Shown here one piece after another: positions 25,752 through 56,397 of a stretch of 64,000 bases of DNA. The DNA is from Halarcobacter sp. (GTDB lineage: Bacteria; Campylobacterota; Campylobacteria; Campylobacterales; Arcobacteraceae). Position numbers and translations under genes: made by a program. Position 1 is the stretch's first letter; every line of letters starts with the position of its first letter. The stretch covers positions 2,880,001-2,944,000 of the forward strand of contig OY781089.1 in assembly GCA_963676565.1 (NCBI GenBank), read 5' to 3'. The notes under the pieces were generated by a model. That model searched no databases, was not told the origin of the DNA, and was given only the letters and a program-made list of their open reading frames with translations.

Positions 25752-25753
25752 AA

Positions 25754-41290: not shown

Positions 41291-44131
41291 TTATCTTTCA
41301 TAAAACTTCTCTACATACCCAACTATTTTATCAAGAACTCTTGGAACTATTTTCTTTCTTTCTAAATATTTAGGTTTTACATTTAAAGTTGCTGCAACAT
41401 CATTTGCTAAAGGTTTTCTTTGCTCATAAATGAATGTATCAATAACCTTTTCAACTTTGTCATTATCTAAATTTTCTTCAACACAAAGTTCATCTAATGC
41501 TTTACCTTTTTCAACATCCCAGAATTTTTCAAACTCTTCTTCTATATCTTCACTATTTTCAATTTTCATCAAGTTATCATTGATGAATCTTTCAATTAGC
41601 TCTCTTTTACTTCTAAGCTGTGGATTATTGTTAAGGATATTACTGATATTTTCTCTTTGTTTAGTTCTAACACCTTCATCTTCTGTCTCTTTATATTGTG
41701 CAAGTAGTTTTAAAATATAACCAACATTGATTTCATCTTTATGGATTAATTCCAGCTCAAAGTCAACATCATCTAAAATAGAAACTTTCTCTGTTCCTTC
41801 TCCATTTCCAGTCGAATGTTTTATCTGTTCATAAAGGTCAAGATATTTAGATTTATAATCTTCAAACATTTGCTCAGTCATTGATAAGTCTGACCATTTG
41901 AAGTCTGTAAATCCTTCTAAAATATTTTTAATTCTCATTAAGTTTCTAAATGCTTTAATAAACTCTAATTTAATATCTTCTCCCATTAAATTATCAATAC
42001 TACTAACACTTGGTACAATAGTGATTAGCTTTATAAATGCTTCATTGAATTTTTTAACATAAACCTCATATGGCTCCATAATGATGATTTCTTTTGCATC
42101 TTTGTTAGAGAACAATGCTATTGCATCATCAGTAGCTTTTTTCAAGTTCCTAAAACAAACTATATTTCCTTGCGATTTTTGTTCGTTCAAGATTCTATTT
42201 GTTCTACTATATGATTGAATTAAACCATGATATTTCAAGTTCTTATCTACATACAATGTGTTTAGTGTTTTACTATCAAATCCAGTTAAGAACATGTTTA
42301 CAACAAGTAAAATATCTACTTCTCTTTGCTTAACTCTTTTTGACATATCATTATAGTAGTTATAAAAGCTCTGAGAATCTTTTGTTGAGTATTTACATCC
42401 AAACATTTTATTGTAGTCTTCAATAAACTCATCAAGCTTTTCTCTACTATGTTTATTGATGTGCTCTTCATCTACATGAGCACCATCAGCTTCATCTAAA
42501 TCAATGATTCCATCAGCATCTTTATCATCTTCATTTGCACTATATGAAAAAATTGTTGCAATTTTTAAATTATGTTTTTTAGATTTAAAAGCTTCATAAT
42601 ATTTAATAAGCATATCTACAGAACTAACACACATCATAGCTGTGAACTCTTTACTATGAGTTTTTCTTCCATGATTAGCAATGATATAGTCAACTATCTT
42701 TTCAAGTCTATCTTGACTTTCAAGAAGCTCTTTTGTATCAATTGCTTCAACTTCAATATCAACATTAGTTGCACTTCCTTCTTTCTCTTTATATCTACCT
42801 ATATATTCAACAGAAAACTTAAGTACATTGTCATCATTAATTGCATCTGTTATCACATAACTATGTAGTTGTTCATCAAATAACTCTTTTGTAGTTCTTT
42901 TTCCCAACTTGTTTCCAGTTGCATTCTCAGCAAAAATTGGAGTACCTGTAAATCCAATCATCTGATTTTTTTCAAAGAATCTTGTAATGTTTAAATGTGT
43001 TTCTCCAAATTGTGACCTATGACACTCATCAAAGATAAAGACAATATGTTTATCTTTTAGTTTTTCCATTGATGATAAATATTGCTTTTTAGAAATTGCT
43101 GTGTTAAGTTTTTGAATAGTTGTAACTATTAATTTTGTATCATTACTAAACTGTTTCACTAATGCTTTTGTATTATCTGTTCCATCAACTGAACCGTCTG
43201 AAAAACTATTAAATTCTTTAGTAGTTTGATAATCTAAATCTTTTCTATCTACTACAAAAACTACTTTATAAACATTAGGAAGCTTCATAAGAATCTGAGC
43301 AGTTTTAAAAGAAGTTAGAGTTTTACCAGAACCTGTTGTGTGCCAAATATATCCATTTTTATTTGTTTCACTAACTCTATTGATAATAGCTTCAACAGCC
43401 CAAAATTGATAAGGTCTTAAAATCATTAATATTTTTGGAACTTCTGCTAAAACTATATATTTACATATCATTTTAGATAAGTGACATCTCTCTAAAAAAG
43501 TTTTTGTAAATTCTTCTAAGTTAGTGATATTTCTATTGGCTTTATCAGCCCAATAGAATGTTTGCTTGAATGATTGTTTTTTATTATTAGCGTAATACTT
43601 GGTATTAACACCATTTGATATAACAAATAGTTGAATATAGTTAAATAGAGCGTTATTAGCACCATAAGAATGTTTTTGGTATCTATTTATTTGATTGAAT
43701 GCTTCTTTTAATTCTAATCCTCTTCTTTTTAGCTCTATTTGAACTAATGGCAGACCATTTATTAAAATCGTAACATCGTATCTGTTTTTATATTTACCTT
43801 CAACAGTCACTTGAGATGTAACTTGAAATAGGTTTTGACACCAATGTTCAGAATCCAAGAACTCAATATATTTTGTAGTGCCATCATCACAAGGAAGAAC
43901 AAATCTATCTCTTAGAATTTTTGACTTTTCAAAGACATTTCCCTTATTTAGATGGTTTAAAACTCTTTTAAATTCTGTATCTGTAATAGTAGTTTTATTA
44001 TGCTTTTCAAGTTGAGATTTTAAGTTTTTTTCTAAATCTTTATCATCTTTAATAACTACTCTTTGATATTGATTCTGTTCAAGTTGCTTAATTAAGTTTT
44101 CTTCTAAGATTGCTTCTGATTGTTTACTCAT
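41291..44131 (-). CDS. hsdR: Type I restriction endonuclease subunit R
   Basis: RYDVTILINGLPLVQIELK, WHTTGSGKT, DECH, FTGTP, SRTNR. Confidence 0.96.
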   Translation of the reverse strand: MSKQSEAILEENLIKQLEQNQYQRVVIKDDKDLEKNLKSQLEKHNKTTITDTEFKRVLNHLNKGNVFEKSKILRDRFVLPCDDGTTKYIEFLDSEHWCQNLFQVTSQVTVEGKYKNRYDVTILINGLPLVQIELKRRGLELKEAFNQINRYQKHSYGANNALFNYIQLFVISNGVNTKYYANNKKQSFKQTFYWADKANRNITNLEEFTKTFLERCHLSKMICKYIVLAEVPKILMILRPYQFWAVEAIINRVSETNKNGYIWHTTGSGKTLTSFKTAQILMKLPNVYKVVFVVDRKDLDYQTTKEFNSFSDGSVDGTDNTKALVKQFSNDTKLIVTTIQKLNTAISKKQYLSSMEKLKDKHIVFIFDECHRSQFGETHLNITRFFEKNQMIGFTGTPIFAENATGNKLGKRTTKELFDEQLHSYVITDAINDDNVLKFSVEYIGRYKEKEGSATNVDIEVEAIDTKELLESQDRLEKIVDYIIANHGRKTHSKEFTAMMCVSSVDMLIKYYEAFKSKKHNLKIATIFSYSANEDDKDADGIIDLDEADGAHVDEEHINKHSREKLDEFIEDYNKMFGCKYSTKDSQSFYNYYNDMSKRVKQREVDILLVVNMFLTGFDSKTLNTLYVDKNLKYHGLIQSYSRTNRILNEQKSQGNIVCFRNLKKATDDAIALFSNKDAKEIIIMEPYEVYVKKFNEAFIKLITIVPSVSSIDNLMGEDIKLEFIKAFRNLMRIKNILEGFTDFKWSDLSMTEQMFEDYKSKYLDLYEQIKHSTGNGEGTEKVSILDDVDFELELIHKDEINVGYILKLLAQYKETEDEGVRTKQRENISNILNNNPQLRSKRELIERFINDNLMKIENSEDIEEEFEKFWDVEKGKALDELCVEENLDNDKVEKVIDTFIYEQRKPLANDVAATLNVKPKYLERKKIVPRVLDKIVGYVEKFYER

Positions 44132-44141
44132 TTCACTCTCT

Positions 44142-46487
44142 TTATAGATTGACTTTTTTGATGGTTAATTTTTGCTCAGATATTTCTGATTTAAAAAAAT
44201 TAATTTTTTGTTTTTGATTTCTTTCTAATTCAGAAATTATTGGTTTTAGAATAGCTTCATTCTTGAATTTTAATCCAAAAGTTATAGATTCAATTTGTAA
44301 TGCAATTATATTTTTTTCAATAGCTTCATTAATGTCAAAAGTATAAGATATTTTTTGTTTTTCCCCATAATGTAATAATCTCACTTCTTTTTCATATTCC
44401 CAATCTTCTGATTTTACAGTCCAATATTCTATAATACTATCAAAAATTTCTTTTTCATCTAAATTTGTATTTTTATATTTTACTTCATCTTTCCCAACAT
44501 AGTTAGGTAAATATAAAAATTTATAGCCGACACATATACCTGTATGTTCTTGTGTATAATGTGACCACATTAATTTATTGTCATTTATTTGTGACAAAGA
44601 ACACAATTTAAAATTATTTTTATTTAAACTTAAATCCTTAAATTGTTTTTCTAAAGATTCAGATGCAACATCAAAAGGGTCATTTAACTGATTAGGGTTT
44701 GCAAAGTATAAATAGTTCTCTGTCAAACTTGATAATGCATTAATGGAAAAAGTTTGATATTTATATAGAGTTCTTGAAAAGTAAGTTGTTCTGGTGTCTT
44801 TTTGATATGAGTTATAAAATATAAAGTCTTTTATACTTTTATCAAACAATGTTTTTTTATCCTCTTTAGCAGTTTTTATTTTTACTAATAAAAGTTCAGC
44901 TTCTCCATCCAGATTCACAAGATATTTTTCTGCTAAATTAATTGACTTCTCAAGATATTTAATAGCTTTTTTGTATTTTTTATTTTTTTTCTTTGATTTT
45001 TTATAATATAGCTTCCCAAGTTCTAAATAATATTTTGGATTTTCATTTTCACTTTTTATTCGATTTTTAATGATAGTAATTCTTTTATTTAGTGAAATTG
45101 AATCATTAAAAGCTGATAAATAATAAAGTTTTCTATCCTCAGTAAGAATAATATTAAGTTTTTTGGATTGAATGTAAATTTCTTTAATTTTTTTTATATA
45201 TAGTTTATGAAGTTTCTTGCGATATGAACCAGTTAATTTTGTAAACTCATTATTATATTCAATATTTAATTTTTTGATATATTTTTGCATTTCATGATAC
45301 GAGGATAAGATTGTATAACTAAGTCCAAAAACATCATCCAATTCAAAATCTTTTTCATCAATTACTCTTTGATATGATTTCTTGATATAATTTCGTGTTA
45401 TTATATAGTTATTTAAAATATATAACAAATAAATATCTTTTTTTAATTCTTTATAATGATTACTAAGCTCATTAAGAATGCCACTAAGATGATTTATACT
45501 ATCTGTATATTTTTTATCAATATTTAACAGCTTTGCTTCATAAAATACTTTATGTTCTTTATGAATTTTAGACTTTTCTTTGTTTAGTATATATTTAACT
45601 TCATTGTACCCATTAAGTTTAAATAACTTTTCAATACCATCTTGCCAATTTCCTGAATGAAAATTACTATAATAATCTTTATAACATTGTATTGCTTTTT
45701 CAGTTTTATTTGTTTCTTCATAGCATTGACCTAATATAAAAAAGTCATTACTATTTTTATTATAATTATTTTTATAATATTCTATTGCTTTATCATATTT
45801 TTTTAGTTTAAAACAAACTTCCCCATAAGAAATATTATTAGTTTTAGATTTTCTTTCTTCATTATGATTAAAATATTTATATAGCCACTTGTAATCTTTT
45901 TTTTGTATATAGTAGTATAAATCACTTTGTTCTGTAGTCAATTTATATTGTTTTTTGAGTTGCTGAGAATCATCTAAGAATTCTTCTTTAAACCAAAGTT
46001 TATTAAGAAATCTTTGTACAGTATTGGTATCTAATGTATTTTTACGCAAAAAATCAAAACATTCTTTATTTTTTTTATCAATGAAAAGTATATAGAATTG
46101 TGCTTCTAAATTATTTTGATTTTCTTTTACTGATTTATTTAGTAGATGTTTAGATATATCATATTTATTAAACCATGTATAATGTTCTAAAGTTCTAAAG
46201 TTATTCTCTAAAAATAAATATAATTGTAAGTTAGTAACTGATTTGTCATTTTGGTTAATTTGTAATATCTGATTAAAATACTTATTTTTATTTTCTTGTA
46301 TCATTTTTATGGTAGTACGTTTTTTATGACTACTAACCCAACTCATTAAATCATATAAATAATAATAGAAAAACAAATATTCTTTATCTTCTAAAAAATC
46401 AGTTTTTAATTTTTGAATGTTTATTTGTGCTTCATAAAAATTTGATTCATACAAATTGTCAATAATCATTTTTTTTAATTCTTGCAT
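44142..46487 (-). CDS. TPR-repeat + DUF2971 protein
   Basis: TPRs (YDKAIEYY, KAIQCY); C-terminal LNDPFD, LMWSHY...GICVGY, KSEDWEYEKEVR. Confidence 0.8.
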   Translation of the reverse strand: MQELKKMIIDNLYESNFYEAQINIQKLKTDFLEDKEYLFFYYYLYDLMSWVSSHKKRTTIKMIQENKNKYFNQILQINQNDKSVTNLQLYLFLENNFRTLEHYTWFNKYDISKHLLNKSVKENQNNLEAQFYILFIDKKNKECFDFLRKNTLDTNTVQRFLNKLWFKEEFLDDSQQLKKQYKLTTEQSDLYYYIQKKDYKWLYKYFNHNEERKSKTNNISYGEVCFKLKKYDKAIEYYKNNYNKNSNDFFILGQCYEETNKTEKAIQCYKDYYSNFHSGNWQDGIEKLFKLNGYNEVKYILNKEKSKIHKEHKVFYEAKLLNIDKKYTDSINHLSGILNELSNHYKELKKDIYLLYILNNYIITRNYIKKSYQRVIDEKDFELDDVFGLSYTILSSYHEMQKYIKKLNIEYNNEFTKLTGSYRKKLHKLYIKKIKEIYIQSKKLNIILTEDRKLYYLSAFNDSISLNKRITIIKNRIKSENENPKYYLELGKLYYKKSKKKNKKYKKAIKYLEKSINLAEKYLVNLDGEAELLLVKIKTAKEDKKTLFDKSIKDFIFYNSYQKDTRTTYFSRTLYKYQTFSINALSSLTENYLYFANPNQLNDPFDVASESLEKQFKDLSLNKNNFKLCSLSQINDNKLMWSHYTQEHTGICVGYKFLYLPNYVGKDEVKYKNTNLDEKEIFDSIIEYWTVKSEDWEYEKEVRLLHYGEKQKISYTFDINEAIEKNIIALQIESITFGLKFKNEAILKPIISELERNQKQKINFFKSEISEQKLTIKKVNL

Positions 46488-46508
46488 AATATCTCTTTTT
46501 TATAATTT

Positions 46509-47723
46509 TTAAACAAACATCTGTTGTAAAAGAGCTTTTTTAAACTCTTTTGTTTTTTCTAATTCTGTTTTTGTAACTTCAATTTTTTTGTCAATTGAAG
46601 AAAGAAAGTTAGCTATACTTTTTTGTTCTTCAAGACAAGGTAAATCCCATTTCAATTTTAAAAAGTCTTTTTTACTCATAACCCTATTTCTTCCAGCCCC
46701 TCCAGGAGAAATTAAATCTAACATAACCTTAAGTTTTTTTTGAATAATTTGATATTTAAAATAATGAGAGTTAGTTATCTTATTTTCAAACGTATATGTT
46801 GGAAATCGATGGGATACTAAGCCTTTGTTATCTTCTTTTTTTACGATAGCAATTGCACCTTCCCATGCAAATGTGATGTTTACAATTAAATCATTCTCTT
46901 TTACAACATATAGTTTATCCATTACAATTTTATCTGGTTCAGAATTAGGCTTTTGAAATGTTCCTTTACAATGACTTTTTACACCTATTGCTAAATAGGG
47001 TTCTTTTGGTTTTTCTATTTCTCTGAAAGTAGGAATTAAAAAATCAATAAATGAATATTCTTTCCACTCTGGAAAGTCATTTCCATTCTTATCTTTAAAA
47101 CGAATTTCATGAGAAAAAAATTTTTGCATTACACTTTGTTTATATTTATCTAAAAGTTTTTCTTTTTTTGTAAGTTGCTCTATCTTTGTGTCAACTAAAG
47201 TTAAAAAAGAAGCTATTTTAATTTGTTCATTTTTTGAAGGAATATGAATTGAATCAATCAAAACTTTTTGATTATTAATTTTCATGTCATTTTTTGCACC
47301 CTTTTGAACCAAAGGCCTTAAATACTTATTTAGATTATCAGATAGAGAAAAATAGTGATCTAAAAAATTTGAGTCAATGCTATCTTTACATCTATATACT
47401 GCATATAAAGTAGATACAATTCCTTCATGTTTTTTATTTGCCTTAATAATTCCATATGGAGCTGTAGCCAAAGGACTTTTAGTGTAGACAATATCGTTTA
47501 ATCTTACTATTGGATAATTAGATACGGATTTCCCGGCATAAGACCTGCCTAAATGTTCTATTTGATTTACTAAACCAAATTGTTGAGATACTGAAAGTAC
47601 TTCATTTTTAGAAAAAATATTTTTAAGGTTTTTTTCTTTATGTTCAAATAACAATTGAGATAATTTTTGACTTACCCAGTCTTTACTAAATTCTTTAAAT
47701 CTCAATTTAGGTACATTACTCAT
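46509..47723 (-). CDS. hsdS: Type I R-M specificity subunit
   Basis: VPKLRFKEF, two TRDs, PxxxEQxKIA repeats, KKALLQQMF. Confidence 0.95.
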   Translation of the reverse strand: MSNVPKLRFKEFSKDWVSQKLSQLLFEHKEKNLKNIFSKNEVLSVSQQFGLVNQIEHLGRSYAGKSVSNYPIVRLNDIVYTKSPLATAPYGIIKANKKHEGIVSTLYAVYRCKDSIDSNFLDHYFSLSDNLNKYLRPLVQKGAKNDMKINNQKVLIDSIHIPSKNEQIKIASFLTLVDTKIEQLTKKEKLLDKYKQSVMQKFFSHEIRFKDKNGNDFPEWKEYSFIDFLIPTFREIEKPKEPYLAIGVKSHCKGTFQKPNSEPDKIVMDKLYVVKENDLIVNITFAWEGAIAIVKKEDNKGLVSHRFPTYTFENKITNSHYFKYQIIQKKLKVMLDLISPGGAGRNRVMSKKDFLKLKWDLPCLEEQKSIANFLSSIDKKIEVTKTELEKTKEFKKALLQQMFV

Positions 47724-47732
47724 GATAATCTC

Positions 47733-49295
47733 CTAAAATGGTGTAGATATGTTTAGTTCTTTACAATATGAAGCTATTTCTTCATCTGTAACTTTCATAT
47801 CTACTTCTAAAGCTTTTAATTCATTTGAAACAGCATCTAAATCAATAGGTTCTTCTTCTTCAAATGTGTCAACATATCTTGGGATATTTAAATTATAATC
47901 GTTCTCTTTAATTTCTTCAATTGAAGCTAAGTGTGAATATTTATCTTCTTCAACTCTATCTCTGTAAGTAGATACAATCTTATCAATATCTTCTTCTCTT
48001 AAATAGTTTTGATTTTTTGCTTTATCAAAATGAGCTGATGCATCAATAAATAAAACATTATCACTATCTTCTCTACACTTTTTAAATACTAAAATACAAG
48101 TAGGAATAGAAGTACCATAAAAAATATTTGCTGGAAGTCCAATAACTGCATCTAAATAGTTTCTATCTTCTATTAGATATTTTCTTATATGTCCTTCTGC
48201 TGAACCTCTAAATAAAACCCCATGAGGTAATACAATAGCCATAGTTCCATTATCATCAAGATGATGAACCATATGTTGAACAAAAGCAAAGTCTGCTTTA
48301 CTTGAAGGTGCTAATTTACCATATTGAGAAAATCTATCATCATTCAAATGAAGTGGGTTTGCTGACCATTTAGCAGAGAACGGAGGATTCGCAACTATTG
48401 CTTCAAATCTTTCATTTTCATGTTGAGGATTCTCTAATGTATCTTCTTGTTTGATATCAAACTTTCTATAATGAACATCATGCATAATCATATTCATTCT
48501 TGCAAGGTTATAAGTAGTTCTATTTAACTCTTGACCATAGAAGTTAGATACATCTTTAACTTCTTTTGAAACCCTTAGAAGTAGTGACCCAGAGCCACAT
48601 GTAGGGTCGTACACAGATTTTAGTTTACTTTTTTTAGTAGTTACAATCTTTGCTAATATCTTTGAAACTTCTTGTGGTGTATAAAACTCTCCAGCTTTTT
48701 TACCTGCTCCAGCTGCAAATTGACCAATTAGATATTCATATGCATCTCCAAGAACATCTCTATCATGATTTTTTAATTCAAAGTTGATATTGTCTAAGTG
48801 ATATAAAACTTTTGAGATAAGTTTATTCTTTGATTCTTCAGTTCTACCAAGTTTTGTAGAAGTTAAATCTAAATCTTCAAATAAGTGTTCAAAATCATCT
48901 TCACTTGCATGACCCATTGTTGATTGTTCTATATGTCTAAGAACTTGTGTTAAGTCTTCTAAAATGAAGTTATCAGAATCTGCATTTCCTTTTTTAGCCA
49001 TATATTTAAATAATTCATTTGGCTTTAAAAAATATCCAAGTTGCTCAATACAATCTTCTTTTAATCCTTCAAGGAAGTCTTTACCATCTTCTGAATTCTC
49101 ATCAATCTCTGTAAATTTAATTCCATCTTCTGCTAATAATTCATTTGTAAAATCTTCAATTTTTTCAGAAAGATATTTATAGAAAATAAATCCAAGAATA
49201 TAATCTCTAAACTCATCAGCATCCATTTTACCTCTAAGTTCATTTGCTATATTCCATAATTGTTGCTCTAAAGCTTTTTTATTTTCTTCACCCAT
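47733..49295 (-). CDS. hsdM: Type I R-M methyltransferase subunit
   Basis: GEFYTP, DPTCGSGSLL, NPPF. Confidence 0.97.
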   Translation of the reverse strand: MGEENKKALEQQLWNIANELRGKMDADEFRDYILGFIFYKYLSEKIEDFTNELLAEDGIKFTEIDENSEDGKDFLEGLKEDCIEQLGYFLKPNELFKYMAKKGNADSDNFILEDLTQVLRHIEQSTMGHASEDDFEHLFEDLDLTSTKLGRTEESKNKLISKVLYHLDNINFELKNHDRDVLGDAYEYLIGQFAAGAGKKAGEFYTPQEVSKILAKIVTTKKSKLKSVYDPTCGSGSLLLRVSKEVKDVSNFYGQELNRTTYNLARMNMIMHDVHYRKFDIKQEDTLENPQHENERFEAIVANPPFSAKWSANPLHLNDDRFSQYGKLAPSSKADFAFVQHMVHHLDDNGTMAIVLPHGVLFRGSAEGHIRKYLIEDRNYLDAVIGLPANIFYGTSIPTCILVFKKCREDSDNVLFIDASAHFDKAKNQNYLREEDIDKIVSTYRDRVEEDKYSHLASIEEIKENDYNLNIPRYVDTFEEEEPIDLDAVSNELKALEVDMKVTDEEIASYCKELNISTPF

Positions 49296-49376
49296 TTTTT
49301 CGAATCCTTATGTGTCATATTTGTTTGTATTTTAAAGTAAATATTATACTACTTCGCTACTTCCATACCTGTTAAA

Positions 49377-49410
49377 ATTATATAATCAGTAAATTACTTA
49401 AATAGGTTAT
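49377..49410 (-). promoter_or_regulatory. box-2 promoter (hsdMSR)
   Basis: AACCT attt AAGTA - 12 nt - TATAAT. Confidence 0.65.
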
Positions 49411-52400
49411 TCATCCCCTAACTCCAAAATATCAAATATATCATTCAGATATTTCATCTGTTCAATATTGATAACTCTATCATCTCTATATTGTTTAGGA
49501 ATTTTATTTCTAAACTCATCAATATTTAAAGGCTTGTGATTTATAAATTGTTCAATCATCATATCTGATAAAATACATCTTCTATCGTTTATGTCAAATT
49601 CTTTTGAAATCTCATCTTCTCTAAAGTTGATTAGCATTTCTTTTATCTCTTCATCTGGCAAAAATAATTGAGTATATTTATTTTGATTTAGTGTCTCTTC
49701 ATTATGATGATGTTCTTTTTTTTCTTTTTCAATTTCTTCTTGAATATCATCACTAATTTTTTTAACTTCAACCACTTCAATCTCTTGAACAGGCATAGAT
49801 TGTATTTTTCCATGATATTTTGCTTGAGCTTCTTTAACTACTTTTATCAACTTAGAAATTTCATTTTCTCTATTTTTATACCAGTCAACTGACCAAATTC
49901 TATAAACATCCCAGCCAAGTGTTTCTAAAACATCTTGTTTTAATCTATCTCTATCTCTTGCAGATTTAGATGAATGATAAGTTGCACCATCACATTCAAT
50001 AGCTAAAACAAAGTCATTTGGATTTTTAGCTGATGTCACAGCTAAATCAATGAAATATCCAGCAACACCAACTTGAGGAACTGCTTCAAATCCACAATCT
50101 TTTAAAATATTGTAAACAGAAACTTCAAACTCAGAATCAAAATCTCTATTTGTGATTTCTGGAGCTTCTGATACAACACCTTTTTCTAAATAATTTAAAA
50201 ATGCTTTTAGTGCTCTAACACCTCTTGAACTATTCTCAGAAATGATAATATCACTACTTCTCATTGATGTGAAGATTTCCATCTTTTGTTTAGAACGAGT
50301 GAACATAACGTTTAGTCTTCTCCATCCTGTATCAGAATTGATAGGACCAAATCTTTGATAAACTCTTCCTGTGTCTTTGTCTTTTCCAAAAGTTGTAGAG
50401 ATTAAAATTACATCTCTTTCATCCCCTTGAAGATTCTCAAGGTTTTTAATAAAGAATGGTTCACTTGTTTTAGACCATTTAGCAATATAGTTAGAAATAA
50501 TTGGAGATTCTTTTTCTCTTTCATCAACCATATCTTGAATTAAATCTCTTTGTGTAGAGTTAAATGTTCCAATACCAATTGACCTATCTGGATAGTTTTT
50601 CATTTGTTTTTCTAAATGTTCAATGATGATTTTTGCTTCAACTTTGTTTCTACTACTTTGATAAGCAGAATTTTCAATGTAATGATATTTAACACCTAAT
50701 TCATCACTATTTTTGCTTGATGGAGAAGGGAATACAATTAAATTGTCTTCATAAAATTGTTTATTTGAAAAATCAATTAAACTTTCATGTTGAGAACGAT
50801 AATGCCATCTAAGTTGTCTAATAGGTTTGTACAAATTTAAACATATATCTAAAATTGATTCACTTTCACTTGCAACTGTTTCTTCATCTTCTGTTTTATT
50901 CATAGAATCAAAGAATGATGTTGGAGGTAACTGTTTAGGGTCTCCAACAATTACAATTTGATTCACTCTTGCAATTGCTCCTAATGCTTCTTCTGGTTTT
51001 AACTGTGATGCTTCATCAACTATTAAAACATCAAACTCAACTTGATTAGGTGGTAAATATTGAGAAACAGATAATGGACTCATCATAAAACAAGGTTTTA
51101 GTGCTTGAATAGCTCCAGATGCTCTTGCAACTAATTGTCTAATTGGAATATGTCTTTTCTTTTTATTTATCTCATGCTCAACTAAACTATAATCAGTTAA
51201 ATCACTAACTCTGTTCCCTCTGTAACCATATGGAATATCTCTTTGACTTGCTAAATAAGCTACCTTTCGTTTATTTAATTCAATAAGCTTTATATCTAAC
51301 TCTTTAAATGTTTTAAGAGATTCTTCATGAGATAATCTACTAAATCTATTGAAAAGCTCATTCTTTCTAAATATTTCTTTCAATAGAGTGTGATAGAAAT
51401 TGTATTTAAAGTTTTTGATAATTTCAGTATTAGGTAGACTCTCATTTTCAATTGCAGTTATTATTGATGTTAAACTTTGATTATTTAAGTCATGAGTTAT
51501 CTGTCTAAAGTTAATCCAAATAGATAAAGTTTGTTTATTCTCATCTATTTTTTCAAGTTTCTCAATACAGTCACTTATCTTTATATTTTCTCCAAAGAAT
51601 TCATCTTTTATAGAACCTTTTGATTCTATTTCAACATAGATATTTTCAATATTTTTTTGTGTCGCTGCAATTGATTCAAGAATACTCATATTATCAATAT
51701 TTTGAGTTATATATTGTTTTAGATTATTATCAAGATTAGAGCCAAATATAAACTCATATAGCTCTTTTGTTCTAACTATCTGTTCATATAGTTCATCACT
51801 AAGTTCTATATCAATATTTTTAATTGATGAATTTATTTTTTGAGATAAATTAATGAACTCTTCAAAATTTAATATGAAATGATTAATTCCTACATCATTT
51901 CTTTTTAATATAGCAAATATATCTTCTAATTCATCACTTGTTATTAATTTAAATAGTTCTTCTTCTAAATTTGAGTTTTGATTTAAATTAGATGCCTTAT
52001 AAAATGATTCAATCAAATAATCAATATCATCATTGATAGTCTCTAATTTGTCTTTTAATTCGATTATATCAATATCATCTTTATCATAGTAAAGTTTTTT
52101 AATAAACTTTTTATCAGATGTTTTTTCTATTTCATTTAATAAATTATTATACGATTCTAAGTTTCCTGTCAATGAATCTTTATATGAAATTAATAAATTA
52201 TATTTTGATGTTTCTCCAGAGATTAATAAGTTTAGAATCTCTGAGATGTTTATCTCTTTTTTTATAACTAAAACCCAATTATGAAGTTTTTCAATATCAT
52301 TAGTGTTAGTTTCTATACCATTAAACATATTTTTAAAATATTCTATATAATGTTCATTATTTTCAAATTGTTCTCTACAATAAATATATTCTTTTATTTT

Positions 52401-54827
52401 AGTAATAATACTATTCCATTCAGAGTTGTTTTTAGGAAGAGAATCTAATAATAAAGAATTGATTAGTTTTTTTGCTGTTTTAAATTCTCCAGATAGAAAA
52501 TTAAAAAAAGAATCTTTTTTATCTTGGATAACCTTTTCGGCATAGTCAATCTCTTTAATTGAGATACTATCTACTTTATCAATTGATGCAATTAATCTTA
52601 AGTCTAATCGTAATTGTTTATAGTAACTTAAATCTTTTTTCATATCATCAAACTCTTTTGAGAATGATGTATCTAAGTAATTTGTGTTAATTGAAGAGTA
52701 TAAAGCTTCATCAACATGAGATAAGTATTTAATACCATTACACAGTTGATTAATGTATTCAATGTTCTTATTATTAGATGTGGTAGCTTCATTTTTGATA
52801 TGTTTTAAAATCTTATTAATCTTTGATATATTAATGATTAATTGTTCAAATAATTCACTGTTTTTACTAAAAGCTTCAATATCATTTTTAATATTTGATA
52901 TTGCATTTTTTACACTTTCAAAATTAGATAAATATTCATCATAGACATTCGGATTTTGAGATAGATTAGATAATATATTTTTAGAATATTCATCATCTCT
53001 TTTATTATATTCTTCTACAAAAGAATGAATCTTTTTACTTTCTGTATATTCATTTTGAATTTCAATATTTAATGATTTATATTGTTCTTCAAGCTTTTCA
53101 AAATCAAACTTAAGAGATTTAAGAGTTGTTATAAATGTATCTATATCAACAAAATTAAGATTATATGTATCTAAACCTCTCCAATAAAAGTTATTAAAGT
53201 CATACTCTTTTAAATAAGATTGATACTTTTTTAATATCTCAATCGTATTTGATAGTTTGTACGCATTATATTCATTTGCATTAGGAACATCAAATTTTAG
53301 GTATTCAGAAGACTTACTATATCTTTCAACTAACCAAAATATATTATAAACTTTTTTGTTTATTGCTCCATATGGTTCATGTAATAAATCAATATATGCT
53401 TTTAGTTCTTTCTTTTTTGCTTCAATTTGCTCAATTGTAATTTCTATGTATTCAACATAACCATATTTAGAGTCAATTCTTTTTTTGATACTTTCTAATA
53501 TTTTTGTTTTTTGTGATTTATGACTATGTAATTCTAAACAAAAATCTGAAAGACCAATTGAGCCAAGTCTTTTATGAACTACTTCTAATGCAGCAAGTTT
53601 TTCAGAAACAAATAAAACTGATTTTCCTTCAGCTAATAGTGCAGCAATTAAATTTGAAATTGTTTGGGACTTTCCTGTTCCTGGGGGTCCTTCTATTACA
53701 ATGTTTTTGCCATTTAAAACATCAACAATTGCACTATGTTGTGAAGAGTCAGCATTCATAACAAGAGGAATTTTATTCGCTAACTTATCTCCATCAATAT
53801 CATACTCCTCTGCAAACATTGCAGATTCAGATATTTCTTTTCCTTCAAAAATGTCTTTAAAAATATCTTTTTCAGATAAAGGTGTACCATTTTTCCAATT
53901 TTCTTCATTTAAATCTTGATACATTAGTATCTTCCCAAATTTTAGAAAATCAATTGCTATTTCATGTTTTAATGACCAATCTTTTTGTAGTTTTATAGCT
54001 TCACTTACTTCTTTTAAGTAGTCATAATAACTTAGCTCTTCTGTAAGTTCTGGAAGAATAATTCCATAGTCATTATTTAACTTTTCAGCTAATGACCTGT
54101 TTGTATCAATTCCAGCACCAGTATATTCTAAAGTAAATTCATATCTGTTGGCTCTTTTTTCTTTATTTAAAACAATTGGAATACTGATAAGTGGAGATTT
54201 ATTAGATTGTTCAGAGTTTTTTGCTTCTTTCCATTCTAATAATCCAAGAACAAGATAAAGCATGTTTGAACCAGTTTCTTCAATAATTGTTCTTGCATCT
54301 CTTTCAATTGAAGTTAATATTTTTTCCATTTCATTTGGATAATGAAGTGTCTGTAAAGAATCATCTGTATGTTTTTCTTCCACATCAGAACTATTTAAAT
54401 CAATTTCTGGAAGCTCTTTTGAAATATCATACCCTAATTCTTTTGCTCTTTCTTCTGCTGTAAGTAATGCTTGTTTTTGAAGCTCTTTCTTTTCTTCTTG
54501 TAAGCCTTCAATGATGAACTGCAATTGTTTAATAGCTTCATCATTTTCTTGTTTTATAGCTTCTTCTAATTCTTTCCTATGCTCATTGATTTCTTCATCA
54601 ATTTTTTCAAAATCTTTTTGAGAAATTGCTGGTTCTGGAATGAATTCAAATTTAAATGTGCCTTCTTCTTTAACTAAAAAGTTATAAATGAATTCAGCAG
54701 ATTCATCAATAATTCTTAGATTTTTAGTTTTAGAAGGTCTTTTATAGTTTATAAGTTTATTTCTTCTTGATGTATCAATTAACTTGTCTCGTAATTCACT
54801 AATTCCTCTTGAAAATAAATTACTCAT
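49407..54827 (-). CDS. DUF4011 SF1 helicase with C-terminal very-short-patch-like nuclease (Hhe-like defence protein)
   Basis: LIDTSRRNKLIN, EETGSNMLYLVLG, GPPGTGKSQTI, DEASQ, QGDERD, FDSEFE...IDLAV...IECDGATYH. Confidence 0.9.
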   Translation of the reverse strand: MSNLFSRGISELRDKLIDTSRRNKLINYKRPSKTKNLRIIDESAEFIYNFLVKEEGTFKFEFIPEPAISQKDFEKIDEEINEHRKELEEAIKQENDEAIKQLQFIIEGLQEEKKELQKQALLTAEERAKELGYDISKELPEIDLNSSDVEEKHTDDSLQTLHYPNEMEKILTSIERDARTIIEETGSNMLYLVLGLLEWKEAKNSEQSNKSPLISIPIVLNKEKRANRYEFTLEYTGAGIDTNRSLAEKLNNDYGIILPELTEELSYYDYLKEVSEAIKLQKDWSLKHEIAIDFLKFGKILMYQDLNEENWKNGTPLSEKDIFKDIFEGKEISESAMFAEEYDIDGDKLANKIPLVMNADSSQHSAIVDVLNGKNIVIEGPPGTGKSQTISNLIAALLAEGKSVLFVSEKLAALEVVHKRLGSIGLSDFCLELHSHKSQKTKILESIKKRIDSKYGYVEYIEITIEQIEAKKKELKAYIDLLHEPYGAINKKVYNIFWLVERYSKSSEYLKFDVPNANEYNAYKLSNTIEILKKYQSYLKEYDFNNFYWRGLDTYNLNFVDIDTFITTLKSLKFDFEKLEEQYKSLNIEIQNEYTESKKIHSFVEEYNKRDDEYSKNILSNLSQNPNVYDEYLSNFESVKNAISNIKNDIEAFSKNSELFEQLIINISKINKILKHIKNEATTSNNKNIEYINQLCNGIKYLSHVDEALYSSINTNYLDTSFSKEFDDMKKDLSYYKQLRLDLRLIASIDKVDSISIKEIDYAEKVIQDKKDSFFNFLSGEFKTAKKLINSLLLDSLPKNNSEWNSIITKIKEYIYCREQFENNEHYIEYFKNMFNGIETNTNDIEKLHNWVLVIKKEINISEILNLLISGETSKYNLLISYKDSLTGNLESYNNLLNEIEKTSDKKFIKKLYYDKDDIDIIELKDKLETINDDIDYLIESFYKASNLNQNSNLEEELFKLITSDELEDIFAILKRNDVGINHFILNFEEFINLSQKINSSIKNIDIELSDELYEQIVRTKELYEFIFGSNLDNNLKQYITQNIDNMSILESIAATQKNIENIYVEIESKGSIKDEFFGENIKISDCIEKLEKIDENKQTLSIWINFRQITHDLNNQSLTSIITAIENESLPNTEIIKNFKYNFYHTLLKEIFRKNELFNRFSRLSHEESLKTFKELDIKLIELNKRKVAYLASQRDIPYGYRGNRVSDLTDYSLVEHEINKKKRHIPIRQLVARASGAIQALKPCFMMSPLSVSQYLPPNQVEFDVLIVDEASQLKPEEALGAIARVNQIVIVGDPKQLPPTSFFDSMNKTEDEETVASESESILDICLNLYKPIRQLRWHYRSQHESLIDFSNKQFYEDNLIVFPSPSSKNSDELGVKYHYIENSAYQSSRNKVEAKIIIEHLEKQMKNYPDRSIGIGTFNSTQRDLIQDMVDEREKESPIISNYIAKWSKTSEPFFIKNLENLQGDERDVILISTTFGKDKDTGRVYQRFGPINSDTGWRRLNVMFTRSKQKMEIFTSMRSSDIIISENSSRGVRALKAFLNYLEKGVVSEAPEITNRDFDSEFEVSVYNILKDCGFEAVPQVGVAGYFIDLAVTSAKNPNDFVLAIECDGATYHSSKSARDRDRLKQDVLETLGWDVYRIWSVDWYKNRENEISKLIKVVKEAQAKYHGKIQSMPVQEIEVVEVKKISDDIQEEIEKEKKEHHHNEETLNQNKYTQLFLPDEEIKEMLINFREDEISKEFDINDRRCILSDMMIEQFINHKPLNIDEFRNKIPKQYRDDRVINIEQMKYLNDIFDILELGDE

Positions 54828-54863
54828 TTGCTTCCTTGTTTAAATTGTATTCCAAAATATCAT

Positions 54864-54898
54864 ATTATAAAATATTTAAATTACCTAATTAAGTAATT
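54864..54898 (-). promoter_or_regulatory. box-2 promoter (DUF4011 helicase)
   Basis: AATTACTTAATTAGGTAATT palindrome; AGGTA - 12 nt - TATAAT. Confidence 0.7.
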
Positions 54899-55821
54899 CA
54901 TTGTTTTTTTAAATATTCATCTATATTCTTTTTAATCTCTTTTTTTAACTCATCTGGTTCAATAACAGATATATATGGCATATATCTTTGAATTGTTGGA
55001 ATAATTTCCATCAAATCAGTTATTGTCACTTCTATTTCAAGAGAACCATCTTTATGTTTTTTTAAAATTCTTTGGGCAGATGATAATGGTTTTCTTATAA
55101 AATATCTTGCAACATTTCTATAAATATATAGTTGAACATTAATAAGCTCATTTTCTGGTTTATAATAAGCTGTTATTGCTTTATCAAAACCTTTTACTTT
55201 CTTTTTATCAAATTGAAAGTTTGAATGAAGAACTTCAATTTCTTTAATTGTATTAAGATGAAATGTTTTAATTTTGTCATCTTTAGGTTCATAAATAATT
55301 AGATACCAATATCCTTCAAGATTTAAAATCTTCAAAGGAAAGATTTCTCTGTGCTTATTGTTATAAAAACATTTGATTATATTTTTTGCCTCAATAGCAT
55401 TTCTAATTTGAATTATTTCTTCTTTGAATTCATCAAATTTTTCTACCGAGGATTGTTGATAAATGTTATTAGACAATTCATCTTCAAATTTATGAAATAG
55501 AGCATCAGTCTTTTCAAATAAATCCTCATCTGTATGTTTGTCTTTTGATTTAAATTTTAAGATAGAAATAACAGCTAATTCATCTGCATTAAAAAGTGTT
55601 TTTGTTAAAAAATTGTTAGATGCTTTATAAACTTTTTCAGAATAATTGTATTTTATCTTTTCATCTAAAAATAATGGAATAATGTAATCTTTAAAATCAG
55701 TTTGAATGATTTTTTTAGAAACTCCAAATCTTTCAGCAACATCAGGTGTAGATAAAGAATAACCTTTTGAAAGTAGTGTAAGAATGGATGATAATCTCTT
55801 TATTCTATTTGTTAAGTTCAT
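54898..55821 (-). CDS. HTH-WYL-WCX transcriptional regulator (WYL-2)
   Basis: VAERFGVSKKIIQTDF HTH, PLKILNLEGYWYL, KTFHLNTI, YMPYISVIEPDEL. Confidence 0.92.
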   Translation of the reverse strand: MNLTNRIKRLSSILTLLSKGYSLSTPDVAERFGVSKKIIQTDFKDYIIPLFLDEKIKYNYSEKVYKASNNFLTKTLFNADELAVISILKFKSKDKHTDEDLFEKTDALFHKFEDELSNNIYQQSSVEKFDEFKEEIIQIRNAIEAKNIIKCFYNNKHREIFPLKILNLEGYWYLIIYEPKDDKIKTFHLNTIKEIEVLHSNFQFDKKKVKGFDKAITAYYKPENELINVQLYIYRNVARYFIRKPLSSAQRILKKHKDGSLEIEVTITDLMEIIPTIQRYMPYISVIEPDELKKEIKKNIDEYLKKQ

Positions 55822-55914
55822 TTAAATATAATATAACAAAACCATTAATTTATTACTTAAAAAAGTTATTTTAAATCAATCACATTTATTTTTTTTGTGC
55901 CTAATTTACTAAAT

Positions 55915-55946
55915 TACTTAATTAGGTACTTCACTATGAATAAAAT
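55915..55946 (+). promoter_or_regulatory. box-2 site next to WYL-2
   Basis: TACTT aatt AGGTA - 12 nt - TAAAAT. Confidence 0.6.
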
Positions 55947-55951
55947 AATTT

Positions 55952-56397
55952 AAAAAAGCTTAGAGATTTGATATAAATGAATTAAAAAACTCAACTTACC
56001 ATAATTATTGAAGTAGTCTTTTTCTTGGCTACATCTGGCATTTAATATTCTATCTTTTGAATATACTTATTATACAAAGAGATATGAGGACACTCTTCTT
56101 TGATTTGTTTTACTTTTAGATCTATATTTACATACAGTTGAGTACAACTTTCTACATTTTCTGTTGTTGGGTTCACTGATAAAAGACCTGCACATAGACT
56201 GTGAACATCATTTAAAACTTTAATATCATCTGTGATTCTTATAAAGTTAGGAAGTTCTTCATTCATTTTAGAGTGTACATATGAAGTTAAAACATATGAA
56301 ACTCCTATGCCAATAAGTGCTGAAATAGATGTTATCTTTAATAGTCTTATAACTTTGTTTTTCATCTTAAAATCATATCAAATCTCTAAGCTTTTTT
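55952..56397. repeat. perfect 23-bp inverted repeat flanking a small gene
   Basis: AAAAAAGCTTAGAGATTTGATAT (55952-55974) is the reverse complement of 56375-56397. Confidence 0.9.
56042..56365 (-). CDS. small membrane-anchored hypothetical protein
   Basis: 107 aa, N-terminal TM, three Cys. Confidence 0.65.
   Translation of the reverse strand: MKNKVIRLLKITSISALIGIGVSYVLTSYVHSKMNEELPNFIRITDDIKVLNDVHSLCAGLLSVNPTTENVESCTQLYVNIDLKVKQIKEECPHISLYNKYIQKIEY

Follow-up and report, generated by a model that had tools for sequence, protein, structure and literature searches.

Whether one local transcription factor can control several neighbouring defence systems is the question raised by this locus. In the window (the whole 64,000-nucleotide stretch of Halarcobacter sp. 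DNA analysed here), a type I restriction-modification (R-M) operon, a gene for a DUF4011 helicase and the regulator gene WYL-2 lie next to one another. A sequence-only reading had proposed that a short palindrome placed 12 nt before −10 hexamers links WYL-2 to both systems. The gene assignments made in that reading (hsdM, hsdS, an intervening gene and hsdR, the DUF4011 helicase, WYL-2) were correct according to Pfam and PADLOC (Table 1). Pfam identified N6_Mtase (E 1.8e-116), Methylase_S (E 5.9e-16), HSDR_N, SWI2_SNF2 and EcoR124_C in the hsd genes, and the PADLOC models MTase_I, Specificity_I and REase_I place HsdM, HsdS and HsdR together in one operon. The helicase gene encodes Hhe (PADLOC PDC-S37 E 0, Hhe E 6.9e-288; Pfam DUF4011 E 3.3e-34, AAA_11/AAA_12, MTES_1575 E 1.2e-34), which combines DUF4011, an SF1 helicase core and a C-terminal MTES_1575/Vsr-like nuclease in one protein.

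Table 1. Coordinates of genes, boxes and −10 hexamers, numbered from the first letter of the window
Feature	Position	Strand	Basis or remark
Type I R-M operon hsdM-hsdS-(DUF2971/TPR, PDC-S31-like)-hsdR	41291..49295	-	Pfam + PADLOC
hsdR	41291-44131	-	
DUF2971/TPR gene, PDC-S31-like	44142-46487	-	
hsdS	46509-47723	-	
hsdM	47733-49295	-	
−10 TATAAT of P2, putative ancestral box-less hsdM promoter GAAGT-N8-AGTATAAT	49343..49348	-	
−10 TATAAT of P1, box-linked promoter upstream of hsdM	49377..49382	-	12 nt past box A core
Box A, AATAACCTATTTAAGTAATT on minus strand	49392..49411	-	overlaps Hhe stop codon
Hhe / PDC-S37 defence gene, 1806 aa	49407..54827	-	Pfam + PADLOC
−10 TATAAT of Hhe promoter	54864..54869	-	12 nt past box B 14-mer core
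Box B, AATTACTTAATTAGGTAATT on minus strand	54879..54898	-	overlaps WYL-2 stop codon
WYL-2, 307-aa wHTH-WYL-WCX transcription factor, presumed box binder	54898..55821	-	Pfam, PADLOC, AF2, fold matches
Candidate −10 TATTAT of WYL-2 promoter	55828..55833	-	20 nt past box D core
Box D, AATAACTTTTTTAAGTAATA on minus strand	55851..55870	-	degenerate fourth box at WYL-2's promoter
Box C, AATTACTTAATTAGGTACTT	55912..55931	+	putative operator of divergent promoter
−10 TAAAAT of divergent promoter	55941..55946	+	12 nt past box C core

A rare palindrome at a fixed distance from −10 hexamers

The palindrome around WYL-2 is real and goes beyond a chance match. It had been described as a 14-mer in three copies. 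The exact pattern, TACYTNNNNARGTA, occurs in the window at 54882-54895 and 55915-55928 only (2 matches versus 0.36 expected; at least 2 in 6 of 100 shuffles), whereas the copy at 49395-49408, TACTTAAATAGGTT, mismatches it at the last base; a fourth, degenerate copy at 55851-55870 (box D) had been overlooked. The best description is the 20-mer AATTACYTAAWTARGTAATT; the flanks of the 14-mer are common to the copies too. Across the 3.34-Mb genome the 14-mer pattern is common, with 40 sites. The exact 15-mer ATTACYTAANTARGT is found in the whole genome at boxes A, B and C only. With the 20-mer of box B as query, these same three boxes, all inside 6.5 kb, are the only genome sites with at most two mismatches: distinct sites by best mismatch number one each at 0, 1 and 2, two at 3, 41 at 4 and 299 at 5. 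A chance origin of the boxes is ruled out by the uniqueness of the 15-mer and by this genome-wide query.

Twelve nucleotides after the 14-mer core stands TATAAT or TAAAAT at all three of these sites, exactly as had been noted, when the strand is read per box (minus for A and B, plus for C). At a fixed offset, taking both sides of a site, the two hexamers have a base rate of 0.0063, giving 2.5e-7 for three of three; in stretches below 20% G+C the rate is 0.008 per strand. Measured from the 20-mer, the end of the box is 9 nt and the start of the proximal GTAA 15 nt ahead of the hexamer in each of the three cargo promoters. A scan of the window for promoter-like hexamer pairs gave no excess (49 versus 54.0 ± 6.1 in shuffles), so the hexamers are informative through their fixed offset only. 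No terminator-like site was found by a terminator scan between WYL-2, Hhe and hsdM, among which transcriptional read-through is possible. Being at shuffle level, the generic promoter and terminator scan argues neither for nor against the promoters. A run search for RNA of the organism found none; the only RNA runs listed contained 0.08-0.10 of the words.

Box B keeps the same position in 21 orthologous loci. From the −10 behind it to the Hhe ATG there are 36 nt, which include the ribosome-binding site AAGGA. The box is a putative operator, and very probably that of the Hhe promoter. Box C adjoins WYL-2, as had been claimed, but faces away from it and does not belong to WYL-2's own promoter. 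The divergent gene behind box C encodes 209 aa in the genome G056; here it is replaced after two codons (ATG AAT TAA, 55978), and homology of the window with G056 stops at 55987, 56 nt past the box. In another genome, G024, the same order of box, 12 nt and TATAAT would drive a divergent Hhe homologue.

Box D lies 33 nt from the WYL-2 start. The candidate −10 of WYL-2 precedes the ATG by 6 nt, and there is no ribosome-binding site, so the WYL-2 transcript appears to lack a leader. A regular expression placed the box at −45/−46 from the ATG in 6 of 26 rows (L001, which is the window's own locus, and L010, L018, L019, L107 and L108); the layout of box D with a leaderless start is also present in the latter five, with spacings counted by eye. 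In L005 the box is found there in a degenerate form, read by eye.

Two promoters upstream of the R-M operon

The R-M operon had been suggested to be inducible, and this stands in part: P1 carries a box, but an ancestral promoter without one, P2, is retained 28 nt downstream of the box-linked −10. The P2 motif is common to four of the 11 hsdM homologue loci examined (L056, L057, L063 and L065). The upstream DNA of these 11 loci contains the box in none, so it was not the R-M operon that brought the box. Because P2 was kept, the operon is more likely boosted above a constitutive level than switched on, and this is probably the form that control by WYL-2 takes, judging from the arrangement of the promoters.

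In box A the left arm is formed by the conserved 3' end of Hhe: all four Hhe homologues end in gatgaataa, with unrelated sequence behind it in the other three. Box A may therefore be a junction product with one true half-site. The Hhe-hsdM junction is present in a relative, since a 44.9-kb metagenome contig (X4 record 17) covers 49200-52312 and 52611-55864 at about 95% identity.

The module recurs with changing cargo

The module was found in 21 orthologous loci at 49-100% identity, with the 3' end of the WYL gene inside the box. The alignment from this 3' end through the box to the hexamer is gapless but for one gap in one row, and a TAnnnT hexamer stands at the aligned position in 20 of the 21. 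Downstream cargo differs among the loci, comprising Hhe, CBASS, Druantia and type I R-M: WYL-2 orthologues lie directly upstream of hsdM in G035 and G066, and a CBASS phospholipase and cyclase lie directly downstream of the orthologue in G024. The 12-nt spacing is also present at the divergent box of G024, at a second site on G035:C17 and at the WYL-to-hsdM promoter of G035, and by eye in Sulfurimonas and other Campylobacterota loci (L092, L094, L098). Dyad symmetry is kept through changes on both arms. Pair 3/18 is T:A in the window and C:G in the group with 50% identity, and pair 7/14 changes to A:T in that group; the recognition helix reads SKKIIQTD in the window versus T-x-x-R-I-I-Q-L-D in the group.

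The repeats could instead be scars or crossover points of defence-cassette exchange, without a regulatory role. Cargo behind the box varies between close orthologues, and several breaks in homology fall at or near boxes: the window parts from G056 within box A, immediately behind GATGAATAAC, and again 56 nt past box C, and the match of the metagenome contig ends at 55864, between boxes D and C. In L035, L037 and L042 the WYL gene terminates in aatgaataaC, comparable to gatgaataaC of Hhe, and this microhomology could have joined a WYL-hsdM module to Hhe. Exchange by itself, however, would preserve neither dyad symmetry through changes on both arms nor the distance to the −10 across 49-100% identity, and no recombinase was found at the orthologous loci examined. 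As a full account of the boxes we consider it highly improbable. It is compatible with regulation, as a conserved operator-promoter could double as homology for cargo exchange.

The box had also been expected to co-occur with WYL-2 orthologues. It does recur in place, but the expectation failed partially: in 8 of the 21 loci (L038-like, 64-70% identity) the dyad is not evident, with at most 3 of 7 matches at the aligned position. In these eight the recognition helix is almost unchanged, the promoter-proximal half-site and the register are kept, and direct repeats GAGTCATTTG lie upstream of their own −10. A dyad missing despite a near-identical HTH is what might be seen if the boxes were read by another factor, or were a promoter upstream element of a mobile module, with WYL-2 binding elsewhere; these direct repeats count on the same side, as does a near copy of the box-A/P1 segment in G019 (87% over 43 nt, box shortened), a genome with no WYL-2 relative at E 1e-40. 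Against this, the box is nowhere else in the genome, which makes a global factor unlikely; it tracks WYL-2 homologues in other genomes; and the type of dyad switches with the WYL paralogue. We regard a different reader of the boxes as improbable.

Family-wide, 46 distinct pattern matches were obtained, of which eight adjoin WYL-2 homologues, and the box was recovered beside homologues not found beforehand in G117 (at both ends of a truncated homologue) and G179. Among matches elsewhere, none of the four fetched had a WYL-2 homologue beside it. The 16-mer pattern occurs in 40 of 184 genomes, about the same as a backwards control, so its presence or absence per genome is uninformative and position relative to WYL genes is the sole usable measure in this count. 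One 16-mer, TAACTTAATTTAGTAA, has a single copy in each of 14 genomes and no relation to WYL-2.

Distant WYL paralogues have another dyad, GACA-N5-6-TGTC, in the same place and register in three of eight loci. WYL-1, also in the window, has its own dyad of this different type at 25750-25738 in the same register, and no WYL-2 box with three or fewer mismatches was found near it. The earlier suggestion that the island holds two orthogonal WYL regulons is plausible, and the concept is already in print for Vibrio cholerae (available part of PMC13622015).

The proposed link of WYL-2 to both Hhe and the R-M operon through the box is supported by uniqueness in the genome, position in orthologues, the recovered homologues in G117 and G179, the paralogue dyads and the hsdM adjacency in G035 and G066. 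The 20-base palindrome is very probably the binding site of WYL-2. A putative WYL-2 regulon covering Hhe and the R-M operon is well supported because the boxes are unique, the register is fixed, the arrangement is conserved and the palindrome changes with the paralogue.

WYL-2 resembles wHTH-WYL-WCX regulators

By its domains and modelled fold, WYL-2 is a member of the wHTH-WYL-WCX (BrxR / CapW / DriD) superfamily and a predicted homodimer. Pfam identified a central WYL domain (PF13280, E 2.5e-8, 34.2 bits against a cut-off of 21.8, residues 138-197) and a C-terminal WCX domain, associated with dimerisation (PF25583, E 5.9e-9, 36.6 bits against 23.9, residues 227-302), and PADLOC WYL models matched at E 1.7e-22 and 1.3e-18. 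No Pfam HTH family matched at E 0.001. In the AF2 model (overall pLDDT 78.6), residues 6-67 form three helices and a beta hairpin at pLDDT 85-91, a predicted N-terminal wHTH; alignments to BrxR, CapW and DriD chains begin at residue 1-4, and the wHTH proteins CymR and SmtB match the model with Z 8.2 and 7.3.

VIA-align ranked DriD highest (Z 14.1 and 12.7), followed by BrxR (11.7), PafBC (11.6) and CapW (11.4). The first DriD match is that of its C-domain to residues 124-307, with an rmsd of 4.1 Å over 178 residues. Foldseek gave E 2e-12 for the activators DriD and PafBC versus 2e-9 for BrxR. By sequence, phmmer of WYL-2 against PDB chains gave no match at E ≤0.01, and a profile of 20 WYL-2 orthologues matched BrxR weakly (7qfz E 0.021, 7t8k E 0.98). 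The predicted homodimer scored an ipSAE of 0.60 versus 0.01 for the best control, with pLDDT of at least 82 and at least 85% of contacts agreeing between runs; in calibration, 20 of 30 proteins solved as pairs attained the ipSAE mark, as did 1 of 23 solved as single chains. The predicted interface is symmetric, formed by residues 80-127 and 275-307. Because related dimers have already been solved, the score may reflect likeness to these known dimers.

Repression or activation

Sites, uniqueness, register, conservation, co-variation, fold and predicted dimer were computed in silico; binding, the ligand and the sign of regulation are what we infer. We give a probability of roughly 0.5 to the reading that the boxes are WYL-2 operators and that the mechanism is repression. 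Under repression, the two wHTHs of a WYL-2 dimer would each recognise a TTAC/GTAA half-site, in a dyad 20 bp long and A/T-rich at its centre. The four putative operators would comprise boxes A, B and C on cargo promoters, at about −41 to −22, and box D at WYL-2's own promoter, at about −49 to −30. The unliganded dimer would cover the A/T-rich upstream region that the Campylobacterota RNA polymerase needs beside the −10. Infection or DNA damage might then free the promoter through a signal, by analogy single-stranded DNA occupying the WYL domain, and release would yield more Hhe and add transcription of the R-M operon from P1 atop the constitutive P2.

Repression is consistent with the consensus −10 hexamers of the window promoters and with the extended −10 (TGnTAnnnT) present in full in 10 of the 21 orthologous promoters, as counted by eye; in the available text of PMC3656092 this element is the standard self-sufficient promoter of Campylobacterota. 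The island-encoded WYL regulators BrxR, CapW and WYL-DE are repressors according to excerpts of PMC9122601, PMC9122588, PMC9122589 and PMC13622015. Four points stand against repression: the best structural matches, DriD and PafBC, are activators; the box stands in the same register to the −10 as the site in DriD-activated promoters; even paralogues hold to this register, although steric repression of a simple kind would not require it; and the three window promoters are without the TG of the extended −10.

Structure and register also suggest the opposite sign for the same operators and protein, with WYL-2 as an activator of the DriD type. Here an ssDNA-bound dimer on a box in the −35 slot would recruit RNA polymerase, and DNA damage or infection would turn on Hhe, the divergent gene and hsdM from P1. 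The registers are alike: the DriD site ends 8 nt before the hexamer with GTCG 15 nt before it (hand count from the accessible part of PMC13004042), next to 9 and 15 nt for the box and its GTAA here, and the 12-nt register is held in orthologues and in paralogues with other dyads. DdaA, a WYL activator of Acinetobacter, induces type I R-M and CRISPR-Cas (PMC12392091, in excerpt). Several observations weaken activation, however. DriD-dependent promoters have poor −10s (CAATCT, CAAGGT and CAAGCC, our own reading of the accessible part of PMC13004042), unlike the consensus hexamers here and the extended −10s in orthologous promoters. A missing −35 is usual in Campylobacterota (PMC3656092, in the part available), and its absence is therefore no argument for activation. 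Those defence WYL regulators that are encoded locally have, as far as they have been studied, proved to be repressors, the DdaA site is in another register, some 50 bp ahead of the start site (PMC12392091, in excerpt), and the higher Z of DriD comes partly from the WCX region and from the predicted conformation. We hold activation to be possible but somewhat unlikely.

A broader and still less likely proposal, which we offer as speculation, is that the defence WYL family throughout Campylobacterota consists of ssDNA-triggered activators of the DriD type, acting from the −35 slot in a fixed register. Hhe, CBASS, Druantia and R-M would then be induced by damage or infection. The operator-promoter at the stop codon would serve as a portable socket for swapped cargo, which here would have joined what was once a WYL-hsdM module to Hhe at its 3' end.

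Comparison with known systems

A literature search gave, among the matches listed, no link of WYL regulators to DUF4011, Hhe, Arcobacter or Campylobacterota. The general principle, a local WYL factor that controls several defence systems including type I R-M, is already published. What this locus offers is a clean putative regulon with one regulator, four putative operators and three target promoters, in a phylum in which defence regulation is hardly studied. Its operator module at the stop codon, fixed register and changing cargo could inform how WYL proteins come to repress or activate, and could show how defence cargo is swapped while it stays under control. The published systems below are described as far as the available parts of the cited papers cover them.

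DriD of Caulobacter crescentus, an activator triggered by single-stranded DNA, is the best structural match and shares the order of wHTH, helical linker, WYL and WCX. Its target, a 21-bp dyad with an A/T-rich centre, occupies the −35 slot with an unvarying spacing to the −10 (PMC13004042). The register is identical to that of the WYL-2 promoters by hand count, with a half-site 15 nt before the hexamer, a likeness of architecture only. Unlike WYL-2, DriD is a chromosomal DNA damage response regulator rather than a defence-island gene, and its promoters have weak −10s. In Acinetobacter, restriction by a type I R-M system is rendered inducible by a DdaA motif within its promoter (PMC12392091). 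DdaA, however, is a global regulator encoded away from its targets, whereas WYL-2 is local; the DdaA motif is some 50 bp ahead of the start site, and the R-M operon here keeps a second promoter without a box.

CapW, the CBASS repressor, acts as a homodimer on a palindromic site of about 20 bp within the promoter of its cargo; it represses transcription both ways and is itself among its targets (PMC9122588). Its sites share bases with the −10, whereas the WYL-2 boxes end 9 nt upstream of it, and capW is usually divergent from its cargo, whereas the cargo of WYL-2 follows on the same strand.

BrxR, from Escherichia fergusonii pEFER and Acinetobacter sp. 394, shares with WYL-2 the wHTH-WYL-WCX architecture, the homodimer (predicted for WYL-2) and a place at the head of a defence island, and both loci have imperfect inverted repeats at promoters. 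On pEFER there are two R-BOXes, at brxR itself and ahead of the following operon, and the Acinetobacter BrxR site, at about −51 to −27, overlaps the −35 much as box D would (PMC9122601, PMC9122589). The fold match between BrxR and WYL-2 is confined to residues 1-215, and operator sequence and half-site spacing differ. The WYL-2 cargo operator, unlike that of BrxR, overlaps the stop codon of the regulator, whose mRNA appears leaderless. Type I restriction enzymes account for 34 of the 210 systems associated with BrxR homologues (PMC9122601, PMC9122589), and 97% of the homologues are from Proteobacteria (Picton et al. 2022), whereas WYL-2 is from Campylobacterota.

A palindromic box recurs at a fixed distance from a -10 hexamer

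WYL-2, a 307-aa wHTH-WYL-WCX protein, and a set of palindromic boxes around it form what is, judged from sequence, a real and coherent regulatory module, and we put the probability that the boxes are WYL-2 operators at about 0.8. The sequence-only reading had described three copies of a 14-mer. The pattern is exact at boxes B and C only, with one mismatch at box A, and is common in itself (40 sites in the 3.34-Mb genome, 28% G+C, that holds the window at G000:C1:2880001-2944000). The similarity of the three copies extends beyond it, to a 20-mer. The 15-mer ATTACYTAANTARGT is exact at A, B and C only in a whole-genome search, and with box B as the query the top three sites in the genome are B itself (0 mismatches), C and A (1 and 2 mismatches); of the sites ranking next, 2 have 3 mismatches and 41 have 4. 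The spacing of 12 nt that had been claimed was confirmed, with TATAAT after the A and B cores (minus strand) and TAAAAT after the C core (plus strand). Either hexamer turns up at a given offset, on one side or the other, with a base rate of 0.0063, so that three out of three corresponds to 2.5e-7. In this A/T-rich DNA, promoter-like hexamer pairs in general are no commoner than in shuffles (49 found vs 54.0), so the hexamers count by their fixed offset alone.

Boxes lie over stop codons and upstream of defence genes

Every gene of the region 41291-55821 is carried on the minus strand. Box B overlaps the WYL-2 stop codon upstream of Hhe, the DUF4011 helicase-nuclease gene, and its -10 stands 36 nt from the Hhe ATG with an AAGGA ribosome-binding site in the interval. 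Box A overlaps the Hhe stop codon upstream of hsdM. Box D, a degenerate fourth copy upstream of WYL-2 itself, is followed after 20 nt by TATTAT; the WYL-2 ATG comes only 6 nt from this hexamer with no ribosome-binding site between, an arrangement that points to a leaderless WYL-2 mRNA. By regular expression, 6 of 26 rows carry the box at -45/-46 from the WYL ATG (L001, the window's own locus, L010, L018, L019, L107 and L108), and inspection by eye adds a degenerate version in L005; in these loci the core is followed after 20 nt by a TAnnnT hexamer (by-eye count).

Box C is oriented away from WYL-2. A 209-aa gene begins at its position in G056, whose WYL protein is 93% identical; homology between this genome and the window beyond box C stops at 55987, and the window retains ATG AAT TAA only. 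In G024 a box-C equivalent is followed by 12 nt and TATAAT before a divergent Hhe homologue. The orphan box-C promoter of the window points in antisense into a 107-aa ORF of no known family. At the other end of the region, the TPR and DUF2971 gene sits inside the type I R-M operon, with hsdS and hsdR on either side. The resolvase and phage-integrase-family genes to the right of the island may mark the boundary of a mobile element.

Features of the locus and its surroundings (window positions)
Feature	Position	Strand	Details
Zorya-like MotA/OmpA genes	21682-25487		
WYL-1 layout	25720-25756		
WYL-1 dyad	25750-25738		GACAAAATGTGAC
WYL-1	25754-27073	minus	WYL-2 paralogue
TOTE conflict system	27561-32605		
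hsdR	41291-44131	minus	
DUF2971/TPR gene	44142-46487	minus	781 aa, PDC-S31-like (PADLOC PDC-S31, E 2.7e-29)
hsdS	46509-47723	minus	
hsdM	47733-49295	minus	
-10 of P2	49348-49343		
Box A, 14-mer	49395-49408		20-mer, promoter orientation: AATAACCTATTTAAGTAATT
Hhe	49407-54827	minus	1806 aa, DUF4011 helicase with MTES_1575 nuclease domain (PADLOC PDC-S37, E 0; Hhe, E 6.9e-288)
Box B, 14-mer	54882-54895		20-mer, promoter orientation: AATTACTTAATTAGGTAATT
WYL-2	54898-55821	minus	Pfam WYL and WCX
TATTAT after box D	55833-55828		
Box D	55851-55870	minus	AATAACTTTTTTAAGTAATA
Box C, 14-mer	55915-55928		20-mer, promoter orientation: AATTACTTAATTAGGTACTT
Orphan box-C promoter stretch	55946-56040		
107-aa ORF	56042-56365	minus	
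Resolvase and phage-integrase-family genes	60853-61410 and 63021-63998		

The R-M operon has two promoter candidates

None of the 11 other hsdM homologue loci (78-96% identical at the DNA level across the first 396 nt) has the box upstream, and the upstream DNA there is unrelated. Four of the 11 share with the window an element, GAAGT-N8-AGTATAAT, about 50 nt before the hsdM ATG; the -10 of the window copy lies 28 nt downstream of the box-linked one. Because this ancestral element persists there, the R-M operon has two tandem promoter candidates, P1 with box A and an ancestral P2 without a box. A scan found no terminator-like site between Hhe and hsdM, so transcripts may also read through into hsdM.

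The conserved 3' end of Hhe supplies the left arm of box A; gatgaataa terminates all four Hhe homologues, and the DNA behind it is unrelated in the other three. The end of the WYL genes in three orthologous loci is aatgaataaC plus the remainder of the box, and in G035 and G066 the WYL-2 orthologue stands directly upstream of hsdM. Our tentative reading is that the gatgaataa/aatgaataa microhomology may have been where a WYL-box-hsdM module became fused to Hhe. A 44.9-kb metagenome contig spans 49200-55864 at about 95% identity, and the Hhe-hsdM junction is therefore shared with a relative. In another genome (L066, G019:C7, 182-224), which has no WYL-2 relative at E 1e-40, a short ORF is preceded by 43 nt that closely resemble (87%) the box-A/P1 segment, with the box two bases shorter.

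Orthologous loci keep the register and vary the box and the cargo

A search at E 1e-40 recovered WYL-2 relatives in 27 of the family's 184 genomes, the window's genome G000 counted. The interval between the WYL 3' end and the next -10 aligns ungapped, bar one gap in one row, across the 21 loci that have a full-length orthologue (49-100% identity), with TAnnnT at the aligned position in 20 and an extended -10, TGnTAnnnT, in 10 (counted by eye). The association of the box with WYL-2 extends to these orthologues in part: the core dyad symmetry is at least 4 of 7 in 12 loci, with about 2.1 expected from base composition, and at most 3 of 7 in the nine others, which retain WYL-2. Eight of the nine form one group (64-70% identity), in which the promoter-proximal half (G-K-N-ATTTA) alone is retained. 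Between the window and a group at 50% identity both arms are altered, pair 3/18 from T:A to C:G and pair 7/14 to A:T, and the recognition helix likewise differs. Instead of the -46 dyad, five 64-70% loci (L009, L011, L012, L014, L016) carry two direct GAGTCAWTTG repeats 5' of the WYL gene, abutting a GATATAAT -10 and then a leader of about 30 nt; the stop-codon dyad is absent there too.

The cargo directly downstream of the orthologue is Hhe (G056, G082), a CBASS phospholipase and cyclase (G024), type I R-M (G035, G066), Druantia-like DruE (G005, G009), an SNF2 helicase with a type IIG enzyme (G004), PDC-S26 (G001, G002, G082) or, in the remaining loci, other systems. A scan of the family with TWACYTARYTWRGTAA gave hits in 40 of 184 genomes, at 46 distinct sites in all, not above a backwards control. 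Eight of the 46 adjoin WYL-2 homologues, including three in G117 and G179, whose homologues had not been found before; boxes lie at both ends of an internally deleted homologue in G117, and in G179 the site precedes, by 47 nt, a homologue located where a contig ends. None of four other sites inspected had a WYL-2 homologue nearby. By eye, records from Sulfurimonas and other Campylobacterota have the box in the same register (L092, L094, L098).

The G117 homologue (L107, G117:C206:3000-10000, 3096-3806; 216 aa) matches residues 1-119 and 216-305, is followed by an apparently housekeeping gene and looks like a decayed module. An extra box, TACCAATTTAAGTA, followed after 12 nt by TATAAT, lies upstream of an 805-aa ORF at a contig end (L067, G035:C17, ~28990-29030), 14 kb from the WYL-2 orthologue of that contig. 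The exact 16-mer TAACTTAATTTAGTAA occurs once per genome in 14 family genomes, away from WYL-2 homologues, and is probably a conserved element of something else.

Paralogues share the register with other dyads

The genome encodes four WYL proteins. Relatives of the second (32-36% identity to WYL-2) have GACA-N5-6-TGTC directly 3' of the stop codon in three of eight loci (L025, L028, L030), then exactly 12 nt and TAnnnT. The WYL-1 layout is that of WYL-2 with another dyad, directly past the stop codon, then 12 nt and TATACT, upstream of a small ORF and the Zorya-like MotA/OmpA genes; a genome search found no WYL-2 box at three or fewer mismatches near WYL-1. Thus, the dyad changes with the protein and the register is constant. 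Upstream of WYL-1 lies a TOTE conflict system, consisting of a DUF7017/S1CSD-TOTE protein and a RecD-like helicase with TBP-TOTE domains.

The probable operators would suit a repressor or an activator

As operators, boxes A, B and C would cover roughly -41 to -22 of the cargo promoters, and box D roughly -49 to -30 of WYL-2's own promoter. We give even odds to repression by WYL-2. BrxR, CapW and WYL-DE are all reported to be repressors, released by single-stranded DNA or infection (PMC9122601, PMC9122588, PMC9122589, PMC13622015, PMC11662680), and the site of Acinetobacter BrxR extends from about -51 to -27, which we count for repression, as we do the consensus -10 elements at the window boxes. 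Epsilonproteobacteria promoters rely on an A/T-rich region and an extended -10 without a -35 (PMC3656092); a protein sitting on the A/T-rich region should block polymerase.

Activation from the same operators, a less probable reading, draws on the predicted fold. In the AF2 model of WYL-2 (pLDDT 78.6), the wHTH is followed by a helical linker, a WYL domain folded as a beta-barrel, and the WCX domain. Its nearest folds in Foldseek are the activators PafBC and DriD (E about 2e-12), followed by the repressors BrxR (2e-9) and CapW (7.5e-9); VIA-align Z is 14.1 for the DriD C-domain, 12.7 for full DriD, 11.7 for BrxR, 11.6 for PafBC and 11.4 for CapW, the BrxR and CapW alignments covering residues 1-215 only. 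DriD sites extend over the -35 slot and keep a constant spacing to the -10 (PMC13004042); in the DriD probes of that paper, counted by hand, the proximal half-site begins 15 nt before the hexamer, exactly as it does at the WYL-2 boxes. The register being kept even in paralogues also argues for activation.

A WYL-2 homodimer is predicted at ipSAE 0.60 vs 0.01 for the best control, with contact agreement of at least 85% and pLDDT of at least 82 across runs. In calibration, 20 of 30 proteins whose solved structures are pairs reached this mark, against 1 of 23 whose structures are single chains. The score may be mere likeness, because related dimers are already solved.

Comparison with known systems

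In the papers cited here, and among the literature matches listed for WYL regulators with DUF4011, Hhe, Arcobacter or Campylobacterota, we found no description of the WYL-2 subfamily in Campylobacterota, of an Hhe link, of an operator that overlaps the stop codon or of the two fixed registers; loci of this kind may already be tabulated among WYL-associated systems in the supplements of the cited papers. Published work describes locally encoded WYL regulators that control defence islands, with a pair of boxes in one island and a frequent association with type I restriction (PMC9122601), parallel WYL regulators that show no cross-talk (PMC13622015), and a WYL factor that renders type I R-M inducible (PMC12392091).
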